Assembly: GCA_963674825.1 (NCBI GenBank)
Contig: OY771587.1
Location: 1,088,001-1,152,000 of the forward strand
Origin: Candidatus Cloacimonadales bacterium
GTDB lineage: Bacteria > Cloacimonadota > Cloacimonadia > Cloacimonadales > JAIOQZ01
DNA: 64,000 nucleotides
Reading direction: 5' to 3'
Shown: positions 1,208-46,546 of the stretch, piece by piece
Position numbering within the stretch: position 1 is the stretch's first letter
Layout: every line of letters starts with the position of its first letter
Translations under genes and position numbers: made by a program
Notes under the pieces: generated by a model
Database searches by the model: none
Told to the model about the DNA's origin: nothing
What the model saw: only the letters and a program-made list of their open reading frames with translations

Positions 1208-1281
1208 AGCTAGCCTTCCCTCCGCATTGAACATCGATGGTTGAACGAACATACTATTAATCGGTTAACCCTGGAGGTGAT

Positions 1282-4197: not shown

Positions 4198-4272
4198 GAT
4201 CGCAGGCATCATTGCTGGCATTGAACAGTAAGATTTTTTACGAATCGACGTGCGTCCAGATTCGGAATAAGA

Positions 4273-4300
4273 AACGGGCAACCCACTGAGGTTGCCCGTT
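4273..4300. terminator. Hairpin between convergent genes (likely bidirectional terminator)
   Basis: AACGGGCAACC-cactga-GGTTGCCCGTT, perfect 11-bp stem. Confidence 0.7.
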
Positions 4301-4319
4301 AATATATGAAGATGATTGA

Positions 4320-6425: not shown

Positions 6426-6507
6426 AATCATTCCTTTTTTATTAATCCCGGCAATAACCACTTATAAAATACGCCTTTTAAGCTGCAAGCAAAACCTCAA
6501 CGTCAAG

Positions 6508-6546
6508 AAAAAAAAAAGAAGGCGGGAACGATTCATTCCCGCCTTC
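6508..6546 (-). terminator. Rho-independent terminator of the 1382-aa gene
   Basis: GAAGGCGGGAA...TTCCCGCCTTC stem with an A10 run on + (U-tract on -). Confidence 0.8.
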
Positions 6547-6564
6547 GATTCTTGATAACAGTTG

Positions 6565-10713: not shown

Positions 10714-10793
10714 ATCTTGTTTCCTTTTCTGCGATTAAAGATCAATTTTCGTCGTTCATATCCGTGATCTAGCATCGGTTGATGCTGCGGATA

Positions 10794-13700
10794 TTACTTG
10801 ATGAGTATCATCTTGCGGATGCTGCTGAAGTCACCGGCATTGATCCGGTAGAAATAGACACCGCTGGCGTTGTTGTCGGCATTCCAGACAGCCTTGTAGC
10901 TGCCGGCAGCGTGCTTGTCGTTAACCAGCGTCGTGACCTTCTGTCCTTTCACGTTGTAAACGTCTATGGTTACGTGACACGGAGTCGCGATATCATAAGC
11001 GATAGTCGTAATCGGGTTGAACGGATTCGGGTAGTTCTGCGAAACACCGAACTTCGCCGGTGCGACATCTTCCCCATCGGCATCCAGCACCTCGACGTAA
11101 CCGGCAAAAGCCTCGTCGAACATGCAATATGCGATGTCGATATCTTCTGCGCCCTGCTCAGCATCGAAAAGGAACGAAACCACCGGCTGCGCAGTCGCCA
11201 GCTGTTCTGTCGCGAAACCGGCAACGCGGATTGAACCGCCCTGATCGTTGGCAGTAACCTGAATGTCGTCCAGATCGCCAGCAACTTCGTAACCGACGTA
11301 GGTGAACTGATCCTGGTTGTAGTCGATACGGCTGATGAACGAATAGAATTCGTCATCGAAGCGGACGTTCACACGAACGCGGCCGTTTTCGTCACGCGCC
11401 AGAGTTCCGAGATCCCAGAGGTCCGGAATGGTGCGTTCAGTCGAGCCAGGGTAGTTTCCGGAAGGATCGCCGATCACAATACCGGTGAAGTTGCGCACGA
11501 GGCTGGTTCCTTCCAGTTCGATGGCATAGGACGACGGATTGAACGCCCAGATACCTGCGGAAAATTCGTCAATGAGTCCAACCGAGTATTGTGCCATGAG
11601 TGCTGCGTCGTAAACGGTGGGATAATAGTCGCCATTCACGTCTGCCGCTGTTTCCTGGTTCGCGTCGAAGATGATCAGACCCAGCGCATAGCGAGCTGTG
11701 AGTGATGCATCGTACGGGGTGATGGTGAGATCCGGGATCGGATCGGTGGAAGAAACAGCCAGTGAATAGCTGCCTGCATGGTGTGTCGGGAAGCTATAAG
11801 CGCCAGATCCATCGGTGTAAAGCGAATCGCTTTCGTAACCGGTCAGGACAAGCTTGGCGTTTCCGACGGCAATGCGGGACGGCGTGAAGTAATTGATACC
11901 ACCGCTGATGGTGTAAGCATTGCGAATGGTGAATGTTCCGTCGTTTTCGGTCACGGTCATCGAGCCATCGTTGACTTCGGTATCGCTGAAGTTAAGCTGG
12001 CAGGTCTCAAAATCGAGCGCGTCGCTTGCAATATCGAACACGATGTTTATGAGGGTACCATCTGTAGGCAGATGACTCGTGCTGTAGCCGCTTACGGTAA
12101 TCTGGCCCTGTGTGGCGTCGTTATAGTTAATCGCCCAACCATCGGTAAGAGTGCCGGTATTATCGACATCCGAGACAGTCAGAAGCGTGTAATCGAACGC
12201 GAGAGTAAACTGGAACGAGATGATCTCGAACGGATCGATCGAGTTGATGATCTCGACCGGCAGCACAAGCTGATTTCCAGCTTCGCCGGTAATCTCGTCG
12301 GACGCGTTGATGCTAAGCGGACCGACCATCACCTGACCCGGTGCATAGGATACGACGGGAGGATTCACACCGTCATCGATAACGCCGTAGATGTAATACA
12401 GCGAGTGCGGTGTATTGGCGAAGTTCCAGGTATAGCTGTCAGCTGCGCTATCTTCGTGAATATTGGATGTAATCAACGTACCGGTGGTGTCGTGACCATC
12501 GTCGTAATAGAGGCTGATCAGCGCGTCGTCTTCGATGTCGATGTCATCCCATTGAATGCTTAGGCTCGATGGATTGAGCGTGAGTTCTGCCGGTGTGAGA
12601 ACCGCAAAATCAGGCGCGAAGTTGCTCAGGGTCGTACCTGCAGTCGGGATCTCAGCAACCTGAGAACCTTCGTAGTTCACAGTCGATGCGATCACTTGGT
12701 AAACCTGATCATCCACGCCATTGACTTGTCCCCACCAGTTGTACCTTGCATCGATTGAACCAGCGGTGTTGTTTGTGGTAAGACCGACCTGAAACGGTTC
12801 GTCTTTATACCGAATCTCGGAGATACGGCCATACTGACTCGATGTATAGTAATAATATACATACACTCGCCAGTCATTTGCGTTTGATGTGCTATTGATC
12901 GTCACCCATGTGTCGAAACTGGTGTTGGATGATGTATTATAATTAGACACTGAGTAAACGTTTGATCCAGCAGCTATCGCTTGAAACTCATAGTCGCTCG
13001 AAGAGCTGCTGTGATTCGCATAACCCTGCACGTGAATCTGATCAACCAGAGAAATAGGGAACTGCGAGTAGTAGTAATTGCTGTAGCCCGAAGTCGAGTA
13101 GAGGTAGCTGGTCGAAAGTGGTTCCGAAACATCGGGATCGGTTCCATTACCATAAATGTTACAGTAATTGATGGTGGGATAGGAGTTTTCCCGAACCATG
13201 AAACCGTTCTGCGTGTTTGCGATGATGTCCGAATAGATGATGGAGCCTTCGCTGCCATCTTCGTAGTTCACGCCAAAACCATCATTGTAGTTGATTGCGC
13301 AGTATTGAAATTCGGGAGCGGATGCACTGCCTTCAATCTGAATACCGGTCTTCTCATTGTAGGAGACATCGGTGTTGCTGATCTCGGGAGTCGAGTTGAC
13401 GCAATAGATACCATAGTTGGTATTGCTTGCAGCGCGGCTGTTTGCGATCACCGCATTTGTACAGCTGCTGAACCACATACCGTAACCGTTGGTGGAGGAA
13501 ACGATCAGTCCATCACCGTTGACAATTGCGTTTGTCCCGGCCTTGAAGCCATAGCCTGTTCCGGTCGACGGAGCAGCCGTCTCGAAGATGATAAGATCGT
13601 TGAGACTGGTAAGGCCGCTGTATGAATTTGCGACTTCCATACCGTAGCCCTTGCTATAGGCGATCATGCCATTGTTGAATGTAACGTATTTATCAGCGAT

Positions 13701-32781: not shown

Positions 32782-32866
32782 ACTGGCAAGTTTTTTCTGA
32801 TTGTCTCGTCCTGAAATTGTTGACCGTTTGGGCTAAGGAGGCACTATATTGGGGTTTCTTGAGCAG

Positions 32867-32895
32867 AAAAAAAGCCTGCCCCGAGTCGTGCAGGC
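32867..32895 (-). terminator. Probable terminator of the FG-GAP gene
   Basis: A7 then GCCTGC...GCAGGC stem on +, giving a hairpin plus U-tract on -. Confidence 0.55.
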
Positions 32896-33002
32896 CGGTT
32901 GACTTCCTTCGATTCTACTTCGCTCCCTTCCACACATACATCTCTTGTTGTCGTTGAGTTATATGAGTTTGTGAAAAGCCGAATTGCCTGGAGTTTGAGT
33001 GA

Positions 33003-35941
33003 TCAATTACAAGCCGGTTCACTTCCTATCCTGATGGGTAAAGGTTCGGGAAACGGGCTGCCTGCAGTCACTCTGTAAAACTTGGAACAAGAAGAAGTAC
33101 TCAAATCACTCCAGGATGTCGTGTTCAAATTCACGGCTTCCACTGCCCAACCATCAGGAAATTCGGCATTTGGATCGTTTGAACTATATACAGTATAAAT
33201 GACACCTCTGGAATTATACGGTACTGAATCCCAGGAGATCGTTACACTTGCATCGTTGCGGGTAATCGTTACATTCTGTGGCGGCATCAACGTAATAAAC
33301 TGCTGAATCGCAGACCAATCGGACTCAGCGAGTTCATTATCGACCGTTTTCACCCTGTAGTAATATCGATATCCTGCAAGGAGGTTGCTTTCAATCTGGA
33401 TATACGGCTGTCCAAATACAGTTATGACCGAATAAACAGGGGCGACAAACGTGTCGGTCGTATCCACCTCGACACAGTACTTCAAATGATCGGAATCATC
33501 GCTAAAATCCGGGTCGGAAGCATTACCCCAGGAAAGGATCGGCGTTAAGCTGTAAACAGCCTCGTCATTTGCCGGCGAAAAACCGCTTATAGGCGCATCA
33601 GGAGCCGTGTTGATCATGTTGAAGAAGAAATGAGCCGTGCCATCGGTAAAAACCGATGTCCAGCCATTTGAATAATTAGGTTTCATGCGCCAGTAATAAA
33701 CCGTATCGTCTGCAAGATTACCATAATCGGGCAATGTATTCAATCTCACCCCAGCGTAAAGTTCCGTAATCCGGGGATTGGGAGGAAGAACATTGTCATC
33801 TACTTCGGGACTGGAGAAATCGGGATTATCATCAATCTGTACCTGATAATCGGCTATAACGTCGAGGCTGTTGGCTTCCCAGAGCAGGGTTCCGGTGGGT
33901 CGCTGTTCATCAGCATTAATCAGACAAGGGTATAGAACCGGATTGGATACCTGCTCGGAGGCAAAGGGAGAACCGGCAAAACAATTATCAATAGCCTGCA
34001 CACTCCAATAATAAACCACAGAAGATGTCTGAAACGGATAGGTTACGTCAAATGTCCATTCGGTGTTATGGTTCTGACTGCCCAAACGGGGTACTTTCCG
34101 CCAGCCGTCGCTCTGCGCCATGGATGAGAATATCTCATCACCGCCGGATGTTGAACCGACCCGTAAGTTATAGGTCAATCCCGAGGATGGGGTTTCATCA
34201 TCCGTGGCGGCATTCCAACTGAAGGCAAGGGAGTTCTTTGTGAAGTTTGCCGTCAAACCGGTCGGAGAAGTGGGGACGGTATTGGCAATGGCAGCATTAT
34301 TTCTATAGATACTGGTAATATCATACCCTGCCAACAGAATATCCAAGTCGCCATCATTATCATAATCACCCCAGGCAACGGAACCATTTACGAGACCCGT
34401 CAAATTGATGCCGGTTTGTTCTGTAAAGGTGCCGTCTCCATTTTTTTTTAGATTTTGGTAGTGGGGCTGGAGCCGTATCCCGATAGAAGAATATCCAGGT
34501 CGCCATCGTTGTCGTAATCGCCCCAGGCGACACTACAATTCGTTACTCCAACCAGCCCGGCATTGATATCCGTAAAAGTATCATCGCCGTCATTGCGATA
34601 GACCTTGCTGATTGTGTGCCAAGAACCATCATAATATATTCCCGCCAACAGAATATCCAGATCGCCGTCGTTGTCATAATCACCCCAGGCGACGCTGCAA
34701 AAACCAACACCCTGCAGCCCTGCATCGATGTCCGTAAAAGTATCATTTCCATCATTGCGATAGATTCTGGAAATATATACTCCGTAGGGTAACCCGGTGG
34801 CAAGAAGGATATCCTGATCACCATCGTTGTCATAATCACCCCAGGCAACAGAACCATCGCAAATGCCAGGTAACCCGGCATTAATGGCGGTAAAAGTATC
34901 ATTGCCGTCATTGCGGTAGACTTCGCTGAGGTAGTTGCCGGCAACATTACTTCCCGCTAATAGAATATCCAGGTCGCCATCGTTGTCATAATCGCCCCAG
35001 GCGACGCTATTATACTCTACTCCAACCAGCCCAGCATTGATGTCTGTAAAAGTATCATTGCCGTCATTGCGATAGACTTCGCTGAGTCGGCCGCCGGGAA
35101 TACTCCCTCCCGTCAATAGAATATCCAGGTCGCCATCGTTGTCATAGTCTCCCCAGGCAACATCATTACCCGAAGAAACATCCACTAAATTGTCGGCAAT
35201 TTCGGTAAACAGATGCAAGGGGGCGCCGTCCGTCAAGACGGTACCATCCGTATCGCCATGAAGGTTATTGTCGGTGTAGTCCAGGATATCGTCTGCGCCG
35301 TCGCCGTTTATGCCCAAATCTTCCAGGACATCCAAGCGCCAATAGCCAATCAGACCATTCTCTGAACCGGTTAATGGATCCCAAATGGCAGATTGGATTT
35401 CCACCTGAGAGCGAGCATAATTCCAGATGCGTACTTCATCCATTTTACCGTTATGGGGAAAACTTCCATTACCTCTTAAGCCTAAACGGAAATCGCTGTC
35501 AGAGTGGACGATCGCTGTCGTCAATGGGTTTGAGCCATTATTTACTGCCCCCATATCGTTGCCGTTTATATATATCTGACCAAGGGATTGACTGGGATCA
35601 TATACACAAGCCACATGTACCCATGAGCCTGGAGTAAAGGCTTCGGCGGGGGTATCGATCCACACGCTGGTGGTGGGAATGAAGCGGATACCATTAGAGG
35701 TGCTGCCACCTAAATGGATTTCCAATTCTTCGCTGCTTTTTGCCGTCAGGAAATCTACATCGGTGCCGCTACCGTCCCAATAAAACCATAACTCGATGGT
35801 TACGGCAGCTACATCAAACAGGTCATCGTCGGGAATGCTGGCATAATCGGTTATCCCGTTAAATTCCAATGCGTTATTACCATACAAGTTGAGAGTAAAA
35901 AACATGAGGAAAATGAAAATGATGATCCCGGCTGTTTTCAT
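33003..35941 (-). pseudogene. Frameshifted LamG + FG-GAP/VCBS repeat + Fn3 secreted protein (split into 34448-35941 and 33003-34403)
   Basis: The AWGDYDNDGDLDILL repeats continue across the two ORFs. The junction reads ATC TAAAAAAAAAT GGA GAC GGC on -, one base short of I-Y-K-K-N-G-D-G. Confidence 0.75.
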
Positions 35942-36063
35942 TTTTTTCTCCTTTGCATCGCACGCAGTTTATACATGATCTGATCAGATTTTATAAGGTA
36001 TATACCTTTTCTGTCAATATCATTCTATCTCACAAGTCCGTCGGTGCTTGGGCAGAAATCCAA

Positions 36064-36099
36064 GCGTCCGTAAAGCTCTGCCAAGGGGGCATTTAATAG
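36064..36099 (+). repeat. Left copy of a degenerate direct repeat bounding the RiPP island
   Basis: GCGTCCGTAAAGCTCTGCCAAGGGGG-CATTTAATAG versus 43152-43190 GCATCTGTAAACTTCTGCCAAGGGGG-tgt-CATTTTATAG (22/26, then 9/10 identical). Confidence 0.55.
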
Positions 36100-36317
36100 G
36101 CAACCAGGAATTGGGTCGCACAGAAGGAGACTAACTCTAAATATACGTGGTCGTGGATGCGAATGGTTATCCGGTCTGCATTCTTGTTACGTCAGGTGCC
36201 AGAATGAGCGGAAAGGAATCGCGACACGATACGCCGAGAACGTATCGTCGTACATTGCAGCGGTAAAGATTCGATGCCTCTTCTTCTGGCTCAATATCTC
36301 GTGACGACACTCTTTAG
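36099..36317 (+). mobile_element. Degenerate, internally deleted IS5-family (IS427-like) transposase remnant with right end
   Basis: Fragments translate GNQELGRTEG / VVVDANGYPVCILVTSG and RKGIATRYAENVSSYIAAVKIRCLFFWLNIS*, followed by end-like TGACGACACTCTTTAG. Confidence 0.75.
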
Positions 36318-36326
36318 AAGTCATTC

Positions 36327-38339
36327 CTATATTGCAAGAACTGCTCGTATCTTGAGATAAAGCGTTTTATGATCGAGTTCCCAAGTATCATCATATCGAT
36401 CTGCTCCTGAGTTATACCCAGCATAGACAGTGACCTGATTATATACTTGCCAGGAAGCGTTGAAATAGACCCCGTAGTGACCCTTATATCTGCCTATTGA
36501 GTAGTTGTGATATCTCAATCCTGATGTGAAAAACAATGTTGAGAATAAATAATACGTAACATCAGAATTTGCTACATCATAGCTTGGATCGATACTCTGT
36601 GTTTCATCCTCAGAGATATCGTAGTATTTCTTCCTTGTCCAGGATGCACTCAAGCTGAAATCGGACCATAAATGTATTGAAGAAGCAACGTTGATGCTTG
36701 CCCATGGCTTAACCTGAGCAAGCCTATAAACCAATTCCTTTCCGCTGGATCCAGTCATCGCTATACGATCATTCACCCGAAACGTGTAGTTTAAGTTATA
36801 GTAAGCTGTGTACTGGGAATACAGTTCGTCCAGATAGTCTTCCTGGCTATTCGTATAGAAAATGTTATGTGAATAATGCTGTGAGTGTTCAATGCCGAAC
36901 TTACCACCATAATTGCTCGTTCGCAGTGAATTGGTATTGTTATAGTATGTTGCATTCACCCAGACACTTGTACTGGTTGTTTCGATTATCCCCTTGCTTT
37001 CTTTCTCGTAGGATAATTCCGCGTCATATCCAGAGTAATTCGTTTCGTAGATTCGTCCCAGTGAACTTACAAAATCGCGACCAATATAATATCCATCAAG
37101 AGACAGAGAGAAATCTCCAGCCCGTTGATAATATGAAGCTTCGGAATACAGGTCGAGCAACACGTCATTATCATCGTGTTGATAGCGCGATAAATAGCCA
37201 TCGATCGTCAGCCATTTTGTCGGAGATATATACCAGGTAGGTTTAAACTGCAGCACTTCATTATCTTCATCGTCCTGCATATTTGCTATAATGCTCGAGT
37301 GTAAATTGACTGACTTATACTTCGAAAGAAATGATGCCAGAAATACTTTACCGACCGAGTCCTCAATATCGTCATCGTCCTGTGCAACCAATATTCCATA
37401 GTTGTATGATGCGGAGCTATTGATATATTTCAGGGCCGCTACGGGTTGTAGGATAGTACGGCTATAATATACGGATGTGTCGATATCGAAAATACTGAGA
37501 TCGCTTACAAAGAAGTAGCGGTTTTCTTCATAGTAGGGGTTATATTCGAGGTTGAAGATATCCTGCTCACTGTCAGGAGGGATGTCAGAATAATCGGGGT
37601 TAACAGTAGCATTCAATGTCATATTCGGCTTGGGATGAAAGCAGAAATCAATCCCAAAGCTATTTTCATCCAAATCATTTTCTTCGCGCATCAAATCATA
37701 TTTATCAACGGCATACGGAAGTACTTGCCAATTCATCTGAGACGGGAGTTTCTCATCAATCACAATGGAGGCACCACTTTTAAAATAGTCTTTTTCCATG
37801 CTGATTGGCGCATAAGGAAACGAATACGCTTCTTTCAGCGTCTGATAATATCTCGTGAGAATAATTTGCCATTGATAAGGTGGAGAACCGCTATAACGAA
37901 GGTCTTTACATGGTATTCTCATTGTGCAATTCCAGGTCGAATCGCTGATGGTCGATTCGTACGTGTACTGACTGTCCCATTCTGTCGAAGAGCTCAAATC
38001 GCTGTTTCGAATACCATCATAATAGGATCCCGCAGGAAAAGCATAGAAGAAGTATGCATAGTAGTCTGATGGAGACGTGATGATTTGAACACGTGCATAA
38101 TCGGATGCAGCCCAACGGTCATCAGCAGTAAATGTACCGGGGCAAAATGTGGAATCGATTTCCATCACCCATTGAAATACTAGCGTTGCATCTTCGTACC
38201 TGACAGAGCATTTTGTTGCTTGAAATGCAGGCACCTGATCATCAGGAGAAACACGCAGGAATTGCTCTGTGTTTGCAATGAGTGCCCAAGCTGTTGAGCC
38301 AATAAGCAAGAACAACATGATTATCAAAACAGATTTCAT
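36327..38339 (-). CDS. DUF5916-like outer-membrane protein with an N-terminal CBM9/DOMON-like domain
   Basis: Signal peptide; W...MRIP..LRY; LNATVNPDYSDI..D...EENRYFF and YYSRTI motifs; C-terminal amphipathic strands ending LYLKIRAVLAI. Confidence 0.7.
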   Translation of the reverse strand: MKSVLIIMLFLLIGSTAWALIANTEQFLRVSPDDQVPAFQATKCSVRYEDATLVFQWVMEIDSTFCPGTFTADDRWAASDYARVQIITSPSDYYAYFFYAFPAGSYYDGIRNSDLSSSTEWDSQYTYESTISDSTWNCTMRIPCKDLRYSGSPPYQWQIILTRYYQTLKEAYSFPYAPISMEKDYFKSGASIVIDEKLPSQMNWQVLPYAVDKYDLMREENDLDENSFGIDFCFHPKPNMTLNATVNPDYSDIPPDSEQDIFNLEYNPYYEENRYFFVSDLSIFDIDTSVYYSRTILQPVAALKYINSSASYNYGILVAQDDDDIEDSVGKVFLASFLSKYKSVNLHSSIIANMQDDEDNEVLQFKPTWYISPTKWLTIDGYLSRYQHDDNDVLLDLYSEASYYQRAGDFSLSLDGYYIGRDFVSSLGRIYETNYSGYDAELSYEKESKGIIETTSTSVWVNATYYNNTNSLRTSNYGGKFGIEHSQHYSHNIFYTNSQEDYLDELYSQYTAYYNLNYTFRVNDRIAMTGSSGKELVYRLAQVKPWASINVASSIHLWSDFSLSASWTRKKYYDISEDETQSIDPSYDVANSDVTYYLFSTLFFTSGLRYHNYSIGRYKGHYGVYFNASWQVYNQVTVYAGYNSGADRYDDTWELDHKTLYLKIRAVLAI

Positions 38340-38349
38340 ATTAACTCCG

Positions 38350-39141
38350 TCAAGAAGTTGCGCTTTTGTAGTATCTTAACATAAAGCGTGTCGCACTGTA
38401 GGCAAGCGTAAGAAAAATGGCGCAACACAGGCATGCTGTTAGCAAAACAGACCTTGTCATCCCCTGTTTCAACGCAAGTAAAGGGAAGTTGCCGATAATG
38501 AGAACCGGAATGATATAGGTGAACAACCATTTTATCGCAGGCTGGGCGAAGATAACTCCAGGGAATGTTGAAAGAGTGAAAAAGGAAGTAAAAAGCGAAG
38601 TAAACGCGTCAAATTTGATGAAGATGATCGCGCCAAGATACAAAATGATGTGAAATGAAGTGAAGATCAAGAGAGCAAGTAGCAGCACGAGCAGATAGGT
38701 TGTTATATGCAGAAAATCAACGTGTATCTGAAACTGCTGCACAATGATAATGAAAAGCACGATATCGATCAGGAGTCTGCCGAGAGCCTTGAATCCCATT
38801 ATACTGCAGAACATCTGGAAATGCAGGTGGAGTGGCTTGATCAATAAATGATCCAATGTTCCATACTGCACTCTTTGAGGTAACTGAGAAATGTTTGAGC
38901 TGAAAAAGAGACCGTAGAAATCGTTGACCGTCTTGACTGTCAACACCAATATATAAAGGTCAAACAATGGAATACCCAGGCTTGATTTTATCTGAAAATA
39001 GAGAATCCGATAAAATACAAGCCCCAGAACCAATCCTACAATATCGAGTACCTGATCAAGAATGAAGTCCTTCGAGAAAAACATCATCCTTTTCCATCCA
39101 AGGCGATTCACCTGTAAGTAATATACAAAATGCCGGATCAT
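38350..39141 (-). CDS. ABC-2 family permease (DUF990/ABC2_membrane_6-like)
   Basis: VQYGTLDHLLIKP, FTYIIP, ending RYYKSATS; ATGA overlap with the upstream permease. Confidence 0.85.
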   Translation of the reverse strand: MIRHFVYYLQVNRLGWKRMMFFSKDFILDQVLDIVGLVLGLVFYRILYFQIKSSLGIPLFDLYILVLTVKTVNDFYGLFFSSNISQLPQRVQYGTLDHLLIKPLHLHFQMFCSIMGFKALGRLLIDIVLFIIIVQQFQIHVDFLHITTYLLVLLLALLIFTSFHIILYLGAIIFIKFDAFTSLFTSFFTLSTFPGVIFAQPAIKWLFTYIIPVLIIGNFPLLALKQGMTRSVLLTACLCCAIFLTLAYSATRFMLRYYKSATS

Positions 39142-39932
39142 CCTGTAGCCTCGTATTTCATTATTCCTTTTCTCCACGTGGTCGTAAGTGCAATCCACAC
39201 CACCAGTACCCAGAGCACTGCTTGTGATAGTAAAATGAGAAAATCTGGCCACGGCATGCTTCTGGTTAGAATACGGGCAGGATAGTAAACCAGATACGCT
39301 GGCGGCAAGCTTAGTAAAATAGTTCGGCAAACACCCGGAAAGATATCCAGCGGGAGAATGCTGCCCGTCATGAATGGCAAAAGTATGCTCAGCAGATTTT
39401 CAACAAACCGAATCTCAAGAAAAAAGAAAGCCAGAATCGACAGCCAGAAGATCAGAAGAAATGAGAGGATTGCCGCAACTACGCTCAATACAAGAAACTG
39501 AATCAAGCTTATGAAATCGATTGGAACCAAGAAGCTACCACGCACAACTACGTATGTTGCGTAGGTGATGATAATCGCAACGGATATAGATATGCTCTTT
39601 AGCGTATAATATACAGTGAAATTATGCCAGAAGTAACGATACGGCTTCAGTAAATGATTATTCAAGCCTCCATTTTTGATATCGTTTTTAATATCCCACC
39701 AGGTTGTGATCGAGAATGCCTCGCTCGTCACTCTTGCCAACAGAAAATAAGCAAGCAGTGATGAGAGCTCCCAAGAGCCAAGAGAAGAGCCATTCTGGTA
39801 AACAAAACGAACTAGCAGTAACTGTCCTAACAAGGGAATCAGGACAACGAGGAAGCTCAAGATGAAGTTTGTCCGATACGCCATGCCCTCTTTCAGGGTT
39901 TGTCTGGCCAGTCCATAGTAGTAGTTATTCAT
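39138..39932 (-). CDS. ABC-2 family permease (DUF990/ABC2_membrane_6-like)
   Basis: MAYRTNF, DIKNGGL..HLLKP, GSILPLDIFP, WRKGIMKYEATG. Confidence 0.85.
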   Translation of the reverse strand: MNNYYYGLARQTLKEGMAYRTNFILSFLVVLIPLLGQLLLVRFVYQNGSSLGSWELSSLLAYFLLARVTSEAFSITTWWDIKNDIKNGGLNNHLLKPYRYFWHNFTVYYTLKSISISVAIIITYATYVVVRGSFLVPIDFISLIQFLVLSVVAAILSFLLIFWLSILAFFFLEIRFVENLLSILLPFMTGSILPLDIFPGVCRTILLSLPPAYLVYYPARILTRSMPWPDFLILLSQAVLWVLVVWIALTTTWRKGIMKYEATG

Positions 39933-40878
39933 GACTCAAAATCTCGACAATGATATCTTCATTATCCTTTTTCTCGACCTTGAAATCGACAATGGCATGT
40001 TTGCCGACAATATCACAAATCGTAGGACTTGATGCATCTCCATCGAAATCCAGAACAACCATATTACCCGCAACGCGACCGTTATAGTCGGAAGCAATTT
40101 TCTGAGCTGTCATATGGGAGTCTGTGTGCAGAACAACCTTTTCATGGCTGTGTTTCTCGAGCAGATAGGCTGTGTCTCCTTGATAAAGAATCTTTCCCTT
40201 GTGCATGACAAGGCATGTATCGCAGCAATCCAGAATGTCCTTAACATTGTGGCTGCAGATAATAAAGCAGATTCCAAATTCCTCATGGCAGAAGTTTATA
40301 AACTTACGCAGGGAATCACGCGAAATTACATCAAGACCAGAGGTCGGTTCATCTAAGAACACTATCCGAGGCAGATGTATAAAGCTGTAGAGCAATTCCA
40401 TCTTTGTTCGTTGCCCAAGTGACATATTTCTCAGTGGTTGATGGATTTCATTAGTGATGTTCAGCGCTTCGCTGAAAATCCCGAGACGACGAACGAACTC
40501 TTCTTTACTGTATCCGTAAATGTGTCGTGACAGCTCGATGCTGTCGATCGCAGGAATATCCCAGATCAGTTGTCCTCTACCTCCCTGAAACAGGCCAATA
40601 TTCATTTTAAAATCTGTGACCAATTTCTGAGGAATAGAATCGAGAACCCGGATTGATCCCGCTGATGGATGCAGTATCCCGGTCAGCATCTTGATCAGCG
40701 TGGTCTTTCCTGCACCATTCTTGCCAAAAACACCAAGGTTTTTCTCAGCATTATGCGTAAAAGATATATCCGAGACAGCCTCAATCAATTTATATGTTGG
40801 CTTCCAGAATGATGATGATGTTTTTACTTTATAGACCTTGCTTAGAGCCTTTACTTCGATTGCGCTTGAACTTTCCAT
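39925..40878 (-). CDS. ABC transporter ATP-binding protein
   Basis: GKNGAGKTT, MSLGQR signature, FLDEPTSGLD; overlaps the rSAM stop. Confidence 0.92.
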   Translation of the reverse strand: MESSSAIEVKALSKVYKVKTSSSFWKPTYKLIEAVSDISFTHNAEKNLGVFGKNGAGKTTLIKMLTGILHPSAGSIRVLDSIPQKLVTDFKMNIGLFQGGRGQLIWDIPAIDSIELSRHIYGYSKEEFVRRLGIFSEALNITNEIHQPLRNMSLGQRTKMELLYSFIHLPRIVFLDEPTSGLDVISRDSLRKFINFCHEEFGICFIICSHNVKDILDCCDTCLVMHKGKILYQGDTAYLLEKHSHEKVVLHTDSHMTAQKIASDYNGRVAGNMVVLDFDGDASSPTICDIVGKHAIVDFKVEKKDNEDIIVEILSHE

Positions 40879-42113
40879 TTCATTACCTGGGGTAGAGCTT
40901 TTTCCAGCATTGGATGCATGCAGCCATTTTCAGCTTCTCCATTATGTTTCCCAAGCAAGCATCCGCCGTAGCATATGGGAAGATAACTGCATCTTTTGCA
41001 TGCTCCAGATATGTGTTTGTATAAATCATGCTTGATTTTCTGTGAAATTGCCTCATAACCATCTTCCAGATTGCCAACCGAAAACTTTTTGTCTCCAGTC
41101 ATGCTTATACATTTATAAATATCTCCGAAGCTGTCAACGACAAATTCATATCGCTTTTTATTTGAACACAGGTGAGTTTTAATAAAGTCTTCGTATTTTG
41201 TATCCTTCCCCTCAACAGGGATGTTGTTTCTTTGTACAAAGTCCATTTTTACTCTGGAGAATTCAGGATATGTAATAACCGTTGCGAGTTTATTTGTTTC
41301 ACCTGAACATATCTTCGCTACATAGAAATCATTGGGAGAGTATTTCATTATCACATGCTTATATACATAATCAAGACAGTGAACATTTCCGCTGTCGACA
41401 TTTACAGATATGTGTCGCGTAATGTCGTTTTCCACAAGAGAATCAAGGGATCTCATGATATTGTCATACGCCGACTCACCATTCTTCATCGGCCTCCGCT
41501 TATTATGCGTTTCCTTATCCCCATCTACCGTGATCAACACTTTTGCCATATTAACAGCCTTAAGGGCATTTAGCACTTCATCTTGATGAATTCGCACACC
41601 ATTTGACACCATCGTCGTCATTATCGTGGAAAAATGTTTCACAGCAATATTGTAAACATCGATCATTATCTGAGGAAACAAAGTCGGTTCGCCGCCATGG
41701 AACGAGAGGTGAATCACATCGATGCCGCTCTTTTCTCTGCATTGTTGCAGAAAAGCATCCAGGTTATCGAGCTGAGCGAATGATGTATAGCCTTGATACA
41801 TGCCGTGTTCATAACAGTAATAGCAATTGCAGTTACACATGTTCGTCACATGAATCGTCAGTGATATCTTATCCTCATTGCATAAGTGATCCTCAAATCG
41901 CTGGAGAGCTTCTTCAGATTCAGAATAATCATCATCAACAAAATCTTCGCACTCAACAAGCATTCGCATCTCATCATCGTCGAATCCCTTGCCTGTTTTC
42001 CATGAATCCTTGTCGATCGGCCTGTCGATTACAAGTAGAGACTTGTTCAGAGTATTAAAGATAATGGTGTTTTCACCTTCGTTGTATATTTTCGCAAAGT
42101 ATGATAATCTCAT
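40851..42113 (-). CDS. Radical SAM/SPASM-domain peptide maturase with probable N-terminal RRE
   Basis: CNCNCYYC (CxxxCxxC), FHGGEP, ITVDG..ETHNKRR; SPASM C...GDIYKC...CxxCx5Cx3Cx12C; N-terminal IIFNTLNKSLL RRE-like region; AGGAGG RBS before the ATG at 42113. Confidence 0.9.
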   Translation of the reverse strand: MRLSYFAKIYNEGENTIIFNTLNKSLLVIDRPIDKDSWKTGKGFDDDEMRMLVECEDFVDDDYSESEEALQRFEDHLCNEDKISLTIHVTNMCNCNCYYCYEHGMYQGYTSFAQLDNLDAFLQQCREKSGIDVIHLSFHGGEPTLFPQIMIDVYNIAVKHFSTIMTTMVSNGVRIHQDEVLNALKAVNMAKVLITVDGDKETHNKRRPMKNGESAYDNIMRSLDSLVENDITRHISVNVDSGNVHCLDYVYKHVIMKYSPNDFYVAKICSGETNKLATVITYPEFSRVKMDFVQRNNIPVEGKDTKYEDFIKTHLCSNKKRYEFVVDSFGDIYKCISMTGDKKFSVGNLEDGYEAISQKIKHDLYKHISGACKRCSYLPICYGGCLLGKHNGEAENGCMHPMLEKALPQVMKWKVQAQSK

Positions 42114-42164
42114 TTTTCCTCCTAACATTACATGAGCATGCGCACTTAAGGTCAAAGATGAACC

Positions 42165-42290
42165 CTAATACAGTGGCGGATCAGGATTTGGAATGGGTTT
42201 GGGATCCGGACAGCGCTGAGTCCTCTGGTTACATGATTCCAATGGAGTTTCATCAAATGCATTTTGCGGTTTCAAGATCATGGTAATCAT
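42165..42290 (-). CDS. RiPP precursor peptide 2 (41 aa; not in ORF track)
   Basis: MITMILKPQNAFDETPLESCNQRTQRCPDPKPIPNPDPPLY*; AGGAGG RBS; paralog of the adjacent peptide. Confidence 0.85.
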   Translation of the reverse strand: MITMILKPQNAFDETPLESCNQRTQRCPDPKPIPNPDPPLY

Positions 42291-42349
42291 TATTCCTCCT
42301 TTTGTCCTGCAATCTAACTGAGATGCAGGGCTTGCGTTAGTTAGTCACA

Positions 42350-42478
42350 CTAGATTTTGGGCAGTTCTGGATCTGGATCTGGTACTGGCGGTGGGGGGCA
42401 CCGGTGGGTGCGCTGGTTGCAAGAATCCAGTGGTGTCTCGTCAAATGCGTTCTGTGGTTTCAAGATCATAGTAATCAT
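42350..42478 (-). CDS. RiPP precursor peptide 1 (42 aa)
   Basis: MITMILKPQNAFDETPLDSCNQRTHRCPPPPVPDPDPELPKI*; AGGAGG RBS. Confidence 0.85.
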   Translation of the reverse strand: MITMILKPQNAFDETPLDSCNQRTHRCPPPPVPDPDPELPKI

Positions 42479-42516
42479 TGTTCCTCCTAAAGAATTACAA
42501 GTGCGCATGCTTCTTG

Positions 42517-42545
42517 AATATTTATATTTCAAAATTGAATGTCAA
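42517..42545 (-). promoter_or_regulatory. Putative sigma70-type promoter of the RiPP operon
   Basis: TTGACA (42545-42540) followed by AT-rich TATAAATATT -10-like region. Confidence 0.5.
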
Positions 42546-43151
42546 ACCTTTTTTAAGTATTGATCTTAATTAGCGGATGGTAATATTTTGGGGTGCAGGC
42601 AATTGCCATTATGTATTATTTATTATTAATGCTCAAATTCGTCTTGGTTTTGCTACACACCTGCCCTAATTCGGATTCAGCATAAGGATTCATGACAGAA
42701 ATGGCCGAGGAAAATGGGACTTGCTTTTATACCCCATGCTGAGCCTTCTTCGACCCACTAGCCAACTAAAGAGCCCCAAAAATCTACTGCCTTTTCAGAA
42801 TTATGATTTTCAGCGTCAATATCTGCTCCAATTGATGGTAGCGCACTGAAACTTCCATATATATAGATATGAATCCCCATTATCAATAACAAGATATATT
42901 AGTCCGTTTACAGCATTCGCATATCTTATCTCACCTTCGAAGCTATTTGGATCAGTAATGGCTTTCTCTACAGGCTCAATCGCGGCATTCTTCGGCAGTC
43001 TACCGAACATCCCGCAACCCTTCGAGGTTTTCTTGCAAAGCTCTAGAATTCCCTTTTCGCTGGTGTTCTGGCTTTCACCCTTCGGTTCGAATCGTATCGA
43101 AATGACGGCAGAAAGTAGCTTGATGAATGCTCGTCCCGTCCTGAAAAAGGG

Positions 43152-43190
43152 GCATCTGTAAACTTCTGCCAAGGGGGTGTCATTTTATAG
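43152..43190 (+). repeat. Right copy of the degenerate direct repeat bounding the RiPP island
   Basis: See 36064-36099. Confidence 0.55.
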
Positions 43191-43436
43191 CGATTTCCTC
43201 GATTCAAGCGGATATATTTTCCATGTAAACTATGCGGATAAATTCTAAGATTCAGTCACTTGCGTAAGTAGGGCCAACTAAAGAAGGAGATATACTCACG
43301 AAAAGCATTCGGCATTACTCGTAATTTCCAGGTAGCTTATTATAATAATAGTGTTCGCTCATTTTTAATAATTTCTTGACATACTATTTACACAATACCA
43401 TACATAGCATTCAATCACACTTCGAGGGGAAACATT

Positions 43437-45413
43437 ATGAGAGATTATTATGATGCGCTTGATGAAATCATGGACTATGCAGTAGACGCCGATAGAGAGC
43501 CATCAGCAAACAGCAAACTCAAGATTAACGCAAAAGATTTCTACGATGGATTGTACGTTAGAAGGCGAAATGAAGAAGCTAAGATAATTGACCTACTGAA
43601 AGAAGCCCATATGATCCATGTTATCGGTGAGCGTGGAAGTGGAAAATCATCTCTCTTAAACGCATTGCCGCGATTATATCAGACAAGGAAAAGTCCTCAT
43701 GGCAATCTTCTATTTTTGCTTTTTGATTTTTTCAGCAACAGAAAACACCAGGAAGCAGTTCACAAATCATTAACCGGCGGAATAGAATTACTAGAAAATG
43801 AAATTAAAGCAGACTTTACCGAAAAATATAAAAAATTATCCCTGCGGATAGTCAAACACTATGGGAATTTGCTACAGAAACCAGAGCCCGAAAATCATAT
43901 GCCAAGTTCAGCTTTTACTGAAAGATACACAGACAGGTATGACCTATTATCCAACGAAGAGAATAAGGCGCTAAAACATTTAGATTTACTGGATATAGGC
44001 CAGTATTGCCATAAAAAACACAATCAGAAAATAATTATTATTCTAGACAATTTTGACTCATGTTATCTCGATCGGATTTTCAACTATGAAGCCATTACCA
44101 GCTTCATGGAAATCCTACACAAACGCTTGCCCACATATAAAGGGCTAATCAGGTTCATTGTTGCGATCCGACATGATATATACCACGAATCTTTTACCAA
44201 GCCAGCACGTCTTAACCAACCAGGTCATGGAACAATGATAAAAAACAGACTCTTTTCCCTTGACTATACCGACTTATTAACGTATCTGGATGTAAAAAAA
44301 GAGATTGAAAAAAGTATAGCCACTGCTATCAGTATTGGTCATACCGAATGGGAGTCCCTTCAAGAAACTTTTCAGGATATGGCCCTACAAAAGTTCGAGA
44401 GATCCATTGCTTGGAATAGAAAAAACTACCTTGAGAAATACGCTAACCAATTGTGCAATAGAGATCCTAAATATGATCGCATTATTAACATGGCAGAAGA
44501 AAGCTACGCAATAACAGCTACATTGAATGGTTATTTTAACTATGATAGAAGAAAATCAAGCAAAGCCAGAAGACAATTTTGTTCTTACACAAGAATCAAT
44601 TACAAGCAAAGACTATACATTTTATCAAGACAAGAGATTGAGACGATTTTCTTCAGATGGTTTATCACAAACCATGCTATTGGTTACGATACAAGCACCT
44701 GTGATATTGTTGGCGAACTCACAACTGAATCTAATGGTCGAATATTATGCAATCTTGGCTTCATGCTTTCAGTATATCTTAATAACCATAGAAAACTCGG
44801 GAACACGCTAACCGGTATTAATGCATCAAAAATCATTCGAGTGTTCAGAAAGTTTGGCTATCCTGCCCAAGACGTGATTAATACACTAGTGTTTTTTCAC
44901 GATCACGCATATATCAATACAAGTAAGAACTATAGGGCTAAAGGCCGAACTGGAAAAGAAGACTACCTCATCCATCCGCAACCCAAATTACTGATCAATA
45001 TAGTAGGCCTTATACAGAAGTACACATATATGATTACACGCATAGCTCAAGAAAACAACTTCTCCGTGACCATTGATGATATAATGAGCAAAACAAATAT
45101 TGAACGGGTAATTTCTTTCGTAAGTAAAATGAGCATTGAGCACATTTCCGCATTGAAATCGATGATCAACAACAAGAAATCCGGATCTTCCATGAAAACA
45201 TACCTTGAAGAATTCTCATACAGAAATTCACTGAATGAAGCCGCCTTTTCAAATCAAAGTATTGAATGGAAAATAGGAAATTTACTGTTGCCAAGACTAA
45301 TCAGGGATCACATATCATATCTTGAGACTAATGATATCAGTGAAACCTATATCAAAAAGTACAAGGAAATCAATCGTAATTTCAAAAAGGAGGTAATCGA
45401 GATTTATGGATGA
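43437..45413 (+). CDS. P-loop NTPase (STAND/KAP-like) hypothetical protein
   Basis: Walker A GERGSGKS, Walker B IIIILDNFD, FIVAIR sensor-like strand; AT-rich. Confidence 0.75.
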   Translation: MRDYYDALDEIMDYAVDADREPSANSKLKINAKDFYDGLYVRRRNEEAKIIDLLKEAHMIHVIGERGSGKSSLLNALPRLYQTRKSPHGNLLFLLFDFFSNRKHQEAVHKSLTGGIELLENEIKADFTEKYKKLSLRIVKHYGNLLQKPEPENHMPSSAFTERYTDRYDLLSNEENKALKHLDLLDIGQYCHKKHNQKIIIILDNFDSCYLDRIFNYEAITSFMEILHKRLPTYKGLIRFIVAIRHDIYHESFTKPARLNQPGHGTMIKNRLFSLDYTDLLTYLDVKKEIEKSIATAISIGHTEWESLQETFQDMALQKFERSIAWNRKNYLEKYANQLCNRDPKYDRIINMAEESYAITATLNGYFNYDRRKSSKARRQFCSYTRINYKQRLYILSRQEIETIFFRWFITNHAIGYDTSTCDIVGELTTESNGRILCNLGFMLSVYLNNHRKLGNTLTGINASKIIRVFRKFGYPAQDVINTLVFFHDHAYINTSKNYRAKGRTGKEDYLIHPQPKLLINIVGLIQKYTYMITRIAQENNFSVTIDDIMSKTNIERVISFVSKMSIEHISALKSMINNKKSGSSMKTYLEEFSYRNSLNEAAFSNQSIEWKIGNLLLPRLIRDHISYLETNDISETYIKKYKEINRNFKKEVIEIYG

Positions 45414-45585
45414 AATTATAGATAAAATTGAGGAGCTTAGGCAAGAGGTTCTTGAGCTTTTAGACTATACCATTAAAAGTAGCAGACGCAATGAGATCAT
45501 CCAGTACATCCTCATTGCCCTTACACTAGTATCAACGGCAAACGCTATTGTCTCAATTTTAATTTTTCTTCAGCACAAACCATAA
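45406..45585 (+). CDS. Small 59-aa protein with one C-terminal TM helix (not in ORF track)
   Basis: MDEIIDKIEELRQEVLELLDYTIKSSRRNEIIQYILIALTLVSTANAIVSILIFLQHKP*; AAGGAGG upstream; 8-nt overlap with the NTPase end. Confidence 0.65.
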   Translation: MDEIIDKIEELRQEVLELLDYTIKSSRRNEIIQYILIALTLVSTANAIVSILIFLQHKP

Positions 45586-45676
45586 AGCAAAGTAACAGTA
45601 TGTTCTTTGCTGTTTTCGCATCACTCAGCATCAGAATGTTTGATATTTACTATATATGCATTCAGAAATAAGCTTG

Positions 45677-46546
45677 CTACATCATATTGAGGATAGAGAT
45701 GAATTCACCGGCGTTCTCGATTTCTTCTTTGGCGATGTTGCGATAGGAATCGAGATTGTATTTATTATCCTTGTCCGGCAGGATACCAAGGCGTTCCAGG
45801 GCAACAGGAGATAGTTCATCGGCGGTGTGGCTGACGGATGGCGATGAATATCCGAGACAATTGACGATGCTGTTGGAGAAGTGGATCATCGCGGTCTCGA
45901 TGGAGGGATCTTTTTCCGGTTCGTGGTGGAACCCCACGGCGTTCTCGATATCCATGGGCAGTTTCCAGCTCTGACAGAGCCAGCTTCCAATCTGCGTGTG
46001 ATCCACACCGATTACCACCATCTCCGCCATTTGCGATGTCTCCCCCATGTCGCGTGTACGCTTCTCTATCTCCAGATATCGCGGATGCAGGTACTCGTGG
46101 ATAATGAGCTTACCAATGTCATGCAAAATCCCGATAGTGAAGATTTCCGACGGTGCGCCAATCTTCAACTCCTCGCTGAGCCGCTTCCCCACGATCGCCA
46201 CTGCCAGACAGTGTTCCCAATAGCGCATCCTGTCGAAATCGTCGTCCCGATACTCCGTATTAAAGCGCTTGGTGAGCGTAAGGCTGATAGCCAGGTTGGT
46301 GATGGTATTGAAGCCGAGAAGCGAGATCGCGAGTTGAACCGTCTTGATCTGGTTTGTAAAAGCGTAGTAGGAAGAATTGGCCAGCTTGAGAATTCGCGCG
46401 GTAAGTGCTTGATCGGATGATATCAGCTTAGCGAGACCTGAGGCGGATGTACTGGGATTGTCGATCATCTCGAGTAGCTTCGCGACAATCGTCGGCATTG
46501 CGGGAAGGCTGATGATGTGTCTGGTAATCTCTTTTACATCGACCAT
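45677..46546 (-). CDS. HDOD domain protein
   Basis: LPAMP, DQALTARILKLANS, AISLLG, YWEHC, GILHDIGK, DHTQIG.WL..SWKLP. Confidence 0.92.
   Translation of the reverse strand: MVDVKEITRHIISLPAMPTIVAKLLEMIDNPSTSASGLAKLISSDQALTARILKLANSSYYAFTNQIKTVQLAISLLGFNTITNLAISLTLTKRFNTEYRDDDFDRMRYWEHCLAVAIVGKRLSEELKIGAPSEIFTIGILHDIGKLIIHEYLHPRYLEIEKRTRDMGETSQMAEMVVIGVDHTQIGSWLCQSWKLPMDIENAVGFHHEPEKDPSIETAMIHFSNSIVNCLGYSSPSVSHTADELSPVALERLGILPDKDNKYNLDSYRNIAKEEIENAGEFISILNMM

Follow-up and report, generated by a model that had tools for sequence, protein, structure and literature searches.

A candidate RiPP cassette with twin precursors, a radical SAM/SPASM maturase, an ABC-2 transporter and an outer-membrane barrel in a Cloacimonadota genome

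What product is made by an operon that sets two very small genes ahead of a radical S-adenosylmethionine (SAM) enzyme, an ATP-binding cassette (ABC) transporter and a large outer-membrane protein? This question is raised by a compact locus in a 64,000-nucleotide (nt) stretch of the genome of Candidatus Cloacimonadales bacterium (assembly GCA_963674825.1, contig OY771587.1, positions 1,088,001 to 1,152,000). We refer to this whole stretch as the window and give coordinates within it. The locus very probably encodes a ribosomally made peptide that is modified after translation (RiPP). The best explanation for its gene content, and in our view a probable one, is that each precursor is bound through its leader by a RiPP recognition element (RRE) in the maturase, acquires a thioether-stapled loop and is exported across two membranes.

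Open reading frames (ORFs) and their translations give seven closely packed genes, all on the minus strand, between 36327 and 42545. From the first gene onwards these encode precursor peptide A (42 residues; 42350..42478), precursor peptide B (41 residues; 42165..42290), an RRE-radical SAM-SPASM peptide maturase (420 residues from an ATG behind AGGAGG; 40851..42113), a DrrA-like ABC transporter ATPase (317 residues; 39925..40878), ABC-2 permease 1 (264 residues; 39138..39932), ABC-2 permease 2 (263 residues; 38350..39141) and an outer-membrane protein with a signal peptide (670 residues; 36327..38339). Genes from the maturase to permease 2 overlap by 28, 8 and 4 nt, after which a 10-nt gap precedes the barrel gene. 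Permease 2 was taken to start at an ATG with a 4-nt overlap onto the stop of permease 1, a choice made against orthologues of 257-263 residues. Gene order, overlaps and gap all agree with the original prediction, which had been made from the sequence of the operon.

The two small genes have the properties of real precursor genes. Precursor A reads MITMILKPQNAFDETPLDSCNQRTHRCPPPPVPDPDPELPKI and precursor B reads MITMILKPQNAFDETPLESCNQRTQRCPDPKPIPNPDPPLY; their cores, SCNQRTHRCP and SCNQRTQRCP respectively, are each followed by a Pro-rich tail. AGGAGG stands 6-7 nt before the ATG of both genes (7 nt for A), and a TTG at 42532 was set aside as the start of A in favour of this ATG. The genes form a direct repeat of 93 nt with 81% identity. 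Their first 28 codons comprise 11 that are identical, 15 with a synonymous and 2 with a non-synonymous difference, and because of this excess of synonymous change both genes appear to be translated and under purifying selection. Alignment with five orthologues shows M1, I2, I5, E14, C20, R23, T24, R26, C27, P28 and P32 to be invariant. The peptides can be divided into a 19-residue leader with the hydrophobic N-terminal motif MI-T/L-x-I-x-K, a conserved core motif C-[ND]-x-R-T-x-R-C-P and a variable Pro-rich tail. They had been described at the outset as rich in both Cys and Pro; the Pro-rich part of this description holds, whereas each peptide has only two Cys, C20 and C27.

Protein databases are of little help in tracing such peptides. 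Neither precursor matches any Pfam or NCBIfam model, including all curated precursor models, and a search of 5.8 billion proteins with peptide B recovered only peptide B. Since this search returned nothing else, gene calling has evidently passed over the orthologous peptides, which were located by reading the DNA upstream of maturase homologues. The maturase itself has few close relatives: the same protein set holds only four clusters at 38-45% identity, one of them a 308-residue fragment, and the next tier lies at or below 29% identity. Named records among these relatives are from Cloacimonadales/Cloacimonadaceae. Within the phylum, 5 of 232 genomes (that of the window included) have a maturase match at E<=1e-30, and three of the five have intact cassettes; there is no match in the three same-genus or the seven same-family genomes. 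The cassette is therefore very rare in its own phylum. A broad radical SAM alignment run against the genome collection yielded one close locus among the 80 matches listed, and relatives were better recovered by a phylum-wide search together with a tighter alignment run on metagenomes.

Each of the six further close loci that have upstream DNA encodes a peptide with C-[ND]-x-R-T-x-R-C-P directly upstream of the radical SAM gene, as had been expected of a true precursor-enzyme pair. The enzymes of these loci are 39-45% identical to the maturase, and every peptide ORF has a good ribosome-binding site. The peptides are MILVIKSVVEPNSEDTKEECNQRTQRCPEPPKTNCQNNN in locus L001 of genome G109, MILIIKKPTSPSEEPIKESCDRRTQRCPEPPPVDPPPNQ in both L090 of G058 and the metagenome locus L093, MILIINKPTSPSEEPIKETCDRRTQRCPPPPPPVDPPPIS in L094, ...CDRRTQRCPPPPPPVDPPPNS in L095 and MIIIIKKPSSANEEPIKERCDSRTQRCPPPPPVNPPIGPPIVK in L096. 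Even L100, with an enzyme only 24% identical, has C-C-T-R-S-Q-R-C-P in an upstream peptide that ends ...GGCCTRSQRCPNE / ...AAGGCCTRSQRCPNE, with C, R, S/T, Q, R, C and P all still in register. When all fetched loci were scanned in six frames, the motif was confined to these loci, apart from high-GC out-of-frame noise. L001, L090, L095 and L096 have the whole set in the same order (peptide, radical SAM enzyme, ATPase, two permeases, barrel), and the ATPase adjoins the radical SAM gene in L001, L090, L091, L092, L095, L096 and L100. Three other loci (L097-L099) combine a 24%-identical radical SAM enzyme with an ABC-2 triad; in these a 257-284-residue protein with a C-terminal GNAT domain replaces the upstream peptide gene, and no CNQRT-like peptide is found upstream of the enzyme.

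The maturase has the architecture of a peptide-modifying enzyme. Pfam assigns it PF04055 Radical_SAM (E 4e-17) and PF13353 Fer4_12. Its CxxxCxxC motif (C93/C97/C100) and seven SPASM cysteines (C316, C335, C372, C375, C381, C385 and C398) are invariant across 19 aligned relatives. The spacing of the latter, C316-x13-G330-x4-C335, then C372-x2-C375-x5-C381-x3-C385, then C398, fits the pattern Cx9-15Gx4C...Cx2Cx5Cx3C...C. In an AlphaFold2 model with a predicted local distance difference test (pLDDT) of 86, the N-terminus consists of strands 7-12, 15-20 and 25-29, then helices 35-40, 46-54 and 65-78, a predicted topology (beta-beta-beta-alpha-alpha-alpha) that is that of an RRE. The three features originally read from the sequence, namely the cluster motif, the seven-Cys SPASM domain and the RRE-like N-terminus, are thereby upheld.

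Comparison with curated families places the enzyme outside all of them. The maturase is matched by 63 NCBIfam models, almost all for radical SAM/SPASM peptide maturases, and reaches the cutoff of none. The best is the geopeptide maturase TIGR04280 (136.9 bits against a cutoff of 400, mainly over residues 15-242), and others include CefB NF038107 (119 against 600), Clo7bot TIGR04334 (111 against 600), PapB NF047865 (94 against 340, aligned over residues 98-400), DynA (88 against 450), the SCIFF maturase TIGR03974 (68.6 against 425) and DarE (48 against 650). The anaerobic sulfatase maturase (anSME) model TIGR03942 scores 82.1 bits against a cutoff of 349, so that neither this group nor any curated maturase family claims the enzyme, an outcome in favour of the first assessment. 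Among solved structures the closest relative is CteB, both by sequence (5wgg, E 4.9e-13, 18-19% identity) and by fold (5why, Foldseek E 2e-16, template-modelling (TM) score 0.58). CteB reportedly has seven rather than eight SPASM cysteines, a substrate Cys filling the open iron site. It is followed among solved relatives by anSME (second best; sequence E 2e-9, TM 0.59-0.61), SuiB, ChlB, TigE and SkfB, and in the fold search SuiB, ChlB, TigE and EpeE come up as well, with E values of 1e-12 to 1e-8. CteB is classed as a ranthisynthase in section 7 of PMC10288494.

Structure prediction supports binding of the leader by the RRE. Three predictions of the complex between the maturase and precursor B, based on our own alignments, gave ipSAE values of 0.71, 0.61 and 0.73 (median 0.71), and the best of three docking controls reached 0.01; in the benchmark for this score, 116 of 157 solved complexes and 2 of 215 mismatched pairs attain the mark. 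At least 50% of contacts coincide between runs, and the partner pLDDT is 50-56. In the models, leader residues 2-9 contact maturase residues 23-30, the beta3 strand of the RRE, and core residues 14-23 lie near residues 309-317, 335, 337 and 385, beside SPASM cysteines C316, C335 and C385. The score may be owed in part to likeness to the solved CteB-CteA complex.

These observations suggest the following mechanism. The two paralogous precursors would be translated, and the motif MI-T/L-x-I-x-K of the leader would pair as a beta-strand with RRE strand beta3 of the maturase. The radical SAM/SPASM enzyme would then modify the C-[ND]-x-R-T-x-R-C-P loop, most probably by linking one or both Cys sulfurs to a carbon in one of the loop residues. 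The prime candidate for the acceptor would be Thr24 (Ser in the distant homologue), through either a Cx3T or a TxxC spacing. The product would carry a small thioether ring, or two of them, ahead of a variable tail of polyproline-like character, and might act as an antimicrobial or a signal. It would be moved over the inner membrane by the ABC-2 transporter, which might also or instead protect the producer, and the barrel of about 24 strands would pass it through the outer membrane. Since no dedicated protease is encoded, the 19-residue leader would be kept or removed by a housekeeping protease; the window, L001, L090, L095 and L096 all lack a peptidase gene, as had been noted for the operon from the start.

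Why a thioether? The main indirect argument comes from related cassettes whose peptides are otherwise unrelated. Genomes G107 and G110 belong to the same genus as G109, and a different cassette occupies the slot that holds the CNQRT-type cassette (L001) in G109; a 332-residue sigma-70-like gene and a 190-residue gene flank the slot in all three (L001, L213 and L214). Like the window, the sister cassette combines a 41-residue two-Cys peptide (L213 of G107, 5475-5600; L214 of G110, 5656-5781) with a radical SAM enzyme (431-447 residues), an ABC exporter and a member of the same barrel family. It differs in its peptide core, METYEKPEIIELDQMINIGAGCKTWKNDGDSCYSEIPVDPK, in having the peptide gene after the radical SAM gene, where in the window it stands before, and in its exporter, a fused PF00664+PF00005 protein of 558 residues in place of an ABC-2 triad. 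The sister enzyme matches the window maturase at E 2.6e-6 and was judged to have no sequence relationship with it. The arrangement has the look of a hotspot, bordered by the sigma-70-like gene, at which cassettes are swapped. Beside that gene there is also a small ORF with a signal peptide, whole in L213 of G107 (66 residues; 7020-7220) and split in two in L001 of G109 (7562-7764).

Further afield, L204 of G227 (3880-9307) has a barrel, a fused ABC exporter, a 447-residue radical SAM enzyme, a 337-residue protein with a weak SPASM match and a 51-residue ORF that ends ...PLADCGGEQCVAILDEKPNL. Outside the phylum, L008 (uncultured bacterium) and L021 (WOR-3) pair a 24%-identical radical SAM enzyme with a barrel homologue. 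The twin upstream peptides of L008 (7678-7906) share ICGCFLT-x-C and each have a strong ribosome-binding site, and L021 has a Cys-rich ORF tail at about 7790-7903. Across L213/L214, L204, L008, L021 and the window, the only feature common to the cores is the presence of at least two Cys. This shared feature hints at Cys-based cross-links, for which thioethers would be the likely chemistry.

The ABC-2 module comprises a PF00005 ATPase (5e-19), which scores 143 bits against the drrA subfamily model, under its cutoff, and two PF06182 permeases (8e-20 for permease 1 and 9e-26 for permease 2). The last gene product is modelled (pLDDT 91.7, predicted TM score 0.85) as a signal helix, an N-terminal beta-sandwich at about 28-195 and a beta-barrel of about 24 strands at about 203-666. 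Foldseek ranks LptD, TonB-dependent receptors and FimD/PapC ushers highest, at TM 0.30-0.38 and 7-10% identity; the modelled likeness is one of general shape, not of membership. LptD, FimD/PapC and TonB-dependent receptors likewise join a large barrel of 22-26 strands to an extra N-terminal beta domain, although the window protein has no identified TonB box or plug, unlike TonB-dependent receptors.

The family to which this barrel belongs could be reached only indirectly. The label 'DUF5916-like' that the protein first received does not follow from a direct match, for Pfam gives none at E<=10 for the 670-residue protein or for its L001 and L090 orthologues, but it does hold through intermediate sequences. 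A full HMMER search with the protein found 3071 relatives at E<=1e-3, 64 of them at E<=1e-30. Of 30 sampled, 19 have PF19313 (DUF5916) and 11 have PF06452 (CBM9_1), 10 of the latter together with PF19313. PF19313 is found in 2 of the 12 close relatives sampled and in 17 of the 18 distant ones, the eighteenth having PF06452 alone; the distant relatives align to residues ~15-325 of the barrel protein (phmmer E 1e-17 to 1e-25). By this transitive homology, and by a shared domain order in which a beta-sandwich precedes a large barrel, the protein appears to be a distant CBM9+DUF5916 relative. Its neighbours vary. In a census of the 29 best-scoring homologues in other genomes, with flanks of about 1.5 kb and 14 query proteins, an ABC exporter was adjacent in 5, a histidine kinase/sigma-54 regulator in 5 and a small radical SAM gene in 1, and 18 of the 29 had none of the query proteins adjacent. 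With longer flanks, a hand-chosen, non-random sample of 18 loci had an adjacent ABC component in 7 and a radical SAM gene in 4. The idea that the barrel always stands beside a peptide pump was rejected on the census count.

Several points weigh against the mechanism set out above, on its chemistry and on its export step alike. Radical SAM/SPASM enzymes also form C-C, C-O and C-N links and epimers, the Pfam SPASM model PF13186 does not match the maturase, and the maturase falls far under the cutoff of every thioether family, PapB and SCIFF included. At the six positions given for CteB under 'catalytic site proximity' in section 7 of PMC10288494, the maturase has Y/H/S/T/I/S and CteB has F/F/T/S/H/Q, which in the HMMER alignment does not look like a close match. 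Arg23, Thr24 and Arg26 are kept as strictly as both Cys, and the fold search is not confined to CteB. The same RiPP cassette could therefore yield something other than a thioether: an ether from the Thr24 oxygen to a neighbouring C-alpha, of the Thr-O to C-alpha kind known from rotapeptides, an epimerised C-alpha, or a C-C or C-N link of some other type within the Arg/Thr loop, with both Cys serving as a disulfide or as metal ligands. We regard this as a rather unlikely alternative. The conserved loop has no aromatic residue, either in the window peptides or in the orthologue alignment, and for this reason products of the cyclophane, streptide and darobactin types are excluded; moreover, the thioether-former CteB is nearest by both sequence and fold, Cys is the sole feature common to the unrelated sister-cassette cores, and the modelled Cys20 region lies beside the SPASM cysteines. 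A more radical objection is that this is not a RiPP system at all, the small ORFs being untranslated and the enzyme acting on another substrate, for example as a maturase of the sulfatase type or on the barrel protein. The rank of anSME as second-best solved relative fits that idea, as do peptides that stand outside all Pfam and NCBIfam families and have no called homologue among 5.8 billion proteins. Nevertheless, the anSME score lies below those of six peptide-maturase models, no sulfatase gene was found near the cassette, the precursors lack the sulfatase motif C/S-x-P/A-x-R, and the enzyme has an RRE at which the model docks the peptide. Strong purifying selection and conservation of the peptide across loci whose enzymes are 39-45% identical add to this, and we judge the objection extremely improbable and close to refuted.

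On the export step, the ABC-2 transporter and barrel might mainly serve self-protection, resistance or peptide uptake, with the peptide leaving by another way or acting inside the cell. Lantibiotic and sactipeptide clusters usually have DrrA-type ABC-2 transporters as their immunity pumps, and no membrane-fusion protein that would join pump and barrel is encoded in the window. Two decayed loci point the same way. In L091 of G009 (1163-6318) there are an intact ATPase, two intact permeases and an intact barrel, whereas only the C-terminal part of the radical SAM enzyme remains (a 154-residue ORF; ~174 residues align) and the peptide gene is gone, an unrelated housekeeping-type gene on the opposite strand occupying its region; L092 of G024 (4832-9987) has the same arrangement up to the contig end. 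For the G009 remnant, immunity is no worse an explanation than export, and retention of pump and barrel without biosynthetic genes resembles, by analogy, an orphan immunity locus. The barrel family, furthermore, is present in 141 of the 232 phylum genomes, mostly without a radical SAM gene, and in none of the seven genomes from the taxonomic family that the window represents. Two-component systems are among its contexts: in L203 of G210 (6929-13016) and L209 of G212 (6092-12304), and also in L183, L196 and L201, the barrel is flanked by a HAMP histidine kinase, accompanied by a DUF4390 protein and a 230-residue protein, and by a sigma-54 response regulator, a context unrelated to peptides. Because the family is so widespread and mostly stands apart from radical SAM genes, it is from linkage alone that we infer a role for the barrel in peptide passage. 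Even so, a system devoted mainly to protection or uptake seems unlikely to us, given that transporter and barrel are coupled translationally to the maturase through the overlaps and the short gap, are present in every intact cassette and have no other exporter beside them in the island. Export and immunity are, in any case, mutually compatible.

How, then, does the cassette compare with known systems? It would work like CteB- and PapB-type systems without belonging to them. CteB/CteA (SCIFF, thermocellin; 5WGG/5WHY) shares the RRE-radical SAM-SPASM architecture, the seven SPASM cysteines, a leader modelled as an added RRE strand and a short peptide with Cys and Thr encoded next door. It differs in the low identity of its enzyme and in its precursor, since SCIFF peptides have six Cys in ~45 residues, where the window peptides have two, another core and a Pro-rich tail; the host here, moreover, is diderm, and the cassette encodes an ABC-2 pump and an outer-membrane barrel of its own. 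PapB/PapA (freyrasin) and NxxcB-type ranthipeptides form thioether rings from i to i+3/i+4, following Cx3D and NxxC patterns, and the spacings of C20-N-Q-R-T24-x-R-C27 would fit. However, PapA has six repeats where there is a single motif here, with one C-x3-T, and Thr/Ser or some other residue would take the acceptor role in place of Asp/Asn. The geopeptide, CefB and Clo7bot maturases, which give the top NCBIfam scores, are likewise peptide maturases that act with short peptides and are curated but chemically uncharacterised; all remain far under their cutoffs, and the window peptides match none of the curated precursor models. Darobactin and dynobactin (DarA-E) offer a diderm radical SAM/SPASM RiPP with a short precursor, an in-operon ABC-type exporter and no protease, yet their cores are aromatic and no DUF5916-like barrel accompanies them. 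The cassette stands outside every curated family: its precursors form a new family, its enzyme a new clade, and its outer-membrane partner is unusual. The initial reading of the operon as an undescribed sacti/ranthipeptide-like class is partly supported, in that the bioinformatic checks put forward with it all gave favourable outcomes; the chemistry and the rank of a class stay at the level of proposals.

The genomic setting of the cassette is that of an island. Guanine-plus-cytosine content is 0.38-0.42 over 36-46 kb, against ~0.46-0.55 in the flanks. Three same-genus genomes match the flanks, and between 36100 and 45677 they match nothing save a 47-nt repeat. The cassette thus lies in an island of ~9.6 kb (36100..45677) that was acquired horizontally, together with a divergent plus-strand gene at 43437-45413 for a 658-residue STAND/KAP-type P-loop NTPase (nSTAND1, E 6e-8), for which PADLOC gave no match. 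Clean insertion borders could not be drawn, as the flanks are non-adjacent in the same-genus genomes. There is no tRNA in the window, and the only Rfam match over 35500-46000 is a chance one to a snoRNA model (E 0.087). Repeats that recur in same-genus genomes lie at 32840-32943 (~100 nt), 36024-36100 (~75 nt) and 42655-42701 (47 nt). The second of these, at the left edge of the island, is found only once more in the genome, and its predicted folding is not significant (z 0.51). The minus strand at 33003-35941, immediately downstream of the operon, encodes a pair of large proteins that look secreted; they have FG-GAP/VCBS-type repeats (AWGDYDNDGDLDILL) and a LamG domain and are 85-91% identical to those of one same-genus genome.

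Signals for expression are faint. Three listed sequencing runs contain the stretch, all of them from a single study that may be its source, and no RNA run is listed among those that do. A weak sigma-70-like promoter candidate, TTGACA-17-AATATT (42517..42545, minus strand; 10/12 matches), stands 5' of precursor A; the promoter scan that gave it found 17 sites against a mean of 20.9 in shuffled sequence, so there is no excess. The 59-nt spacer between the precursor genes (42291..42349, minus strand) is predicted to form a hairpin with a minimum free energy of -13.5 kcal/mol, calculated with no shuffle control; our guess is that it stabilises or attenuates the transcript. A weak terminator-like hairpin lies ~90 nt past the last gene (36222..36236, minus strand), one of two such sites in a scan where shuffled sequence averaged 5.5.

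Thousands of uncharacterised radical SAM RiPP clusters exist, and radical SAM/SPASM RiPPs are a productive source of peptide chemistry and antibiotics. Our literature search found no paper that describes this cassette, the accessible parts of PMC10288494 and PMC10352776 included, and returned no paper for 'DUF5916'; one supplement of PMC10288494 has no 'Cloacimon' entry, and that article may have other supplements. With the present cassette come a precursor family and an enzyme clade beyond the curated models, from a phylum known almost only through metagenomes. At ~6.2 kb and seven genes, it is small enough for direct expression. It also provides a first testable functional context for the uncharacterised family of DUF5916-like barrels.

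We speculate further, on a proposal that we think unlikely to hold in its entirety, that CNQRT-type peptides found a new RiPP family of the Cloacimonadota, defined by an Arg-rich, thioether-stapled eight-residue loop and a hypervariable polyproline tail. DUF5916-like barrels would then be dedicated peptide ports, forming with ABC pumps a route of two-membrane export or immunity that is independent of TolC and membrane-fusion proteins, and on which interchangeable radical SAM cassettes would draw repeatedly, in the Cloacimonadota, in WOR-3 and in further uncultured diderms. What the loci suggest on a smaller scale, by analogy with bacteriocin loci, is a dynamic of cassette exchange and orphan immunity in diderms of the anaerobic-digester type, because the cassette is rare and borne on an island, a different set occupies the same slot in sister species, and pump and barrel persist as remnants.

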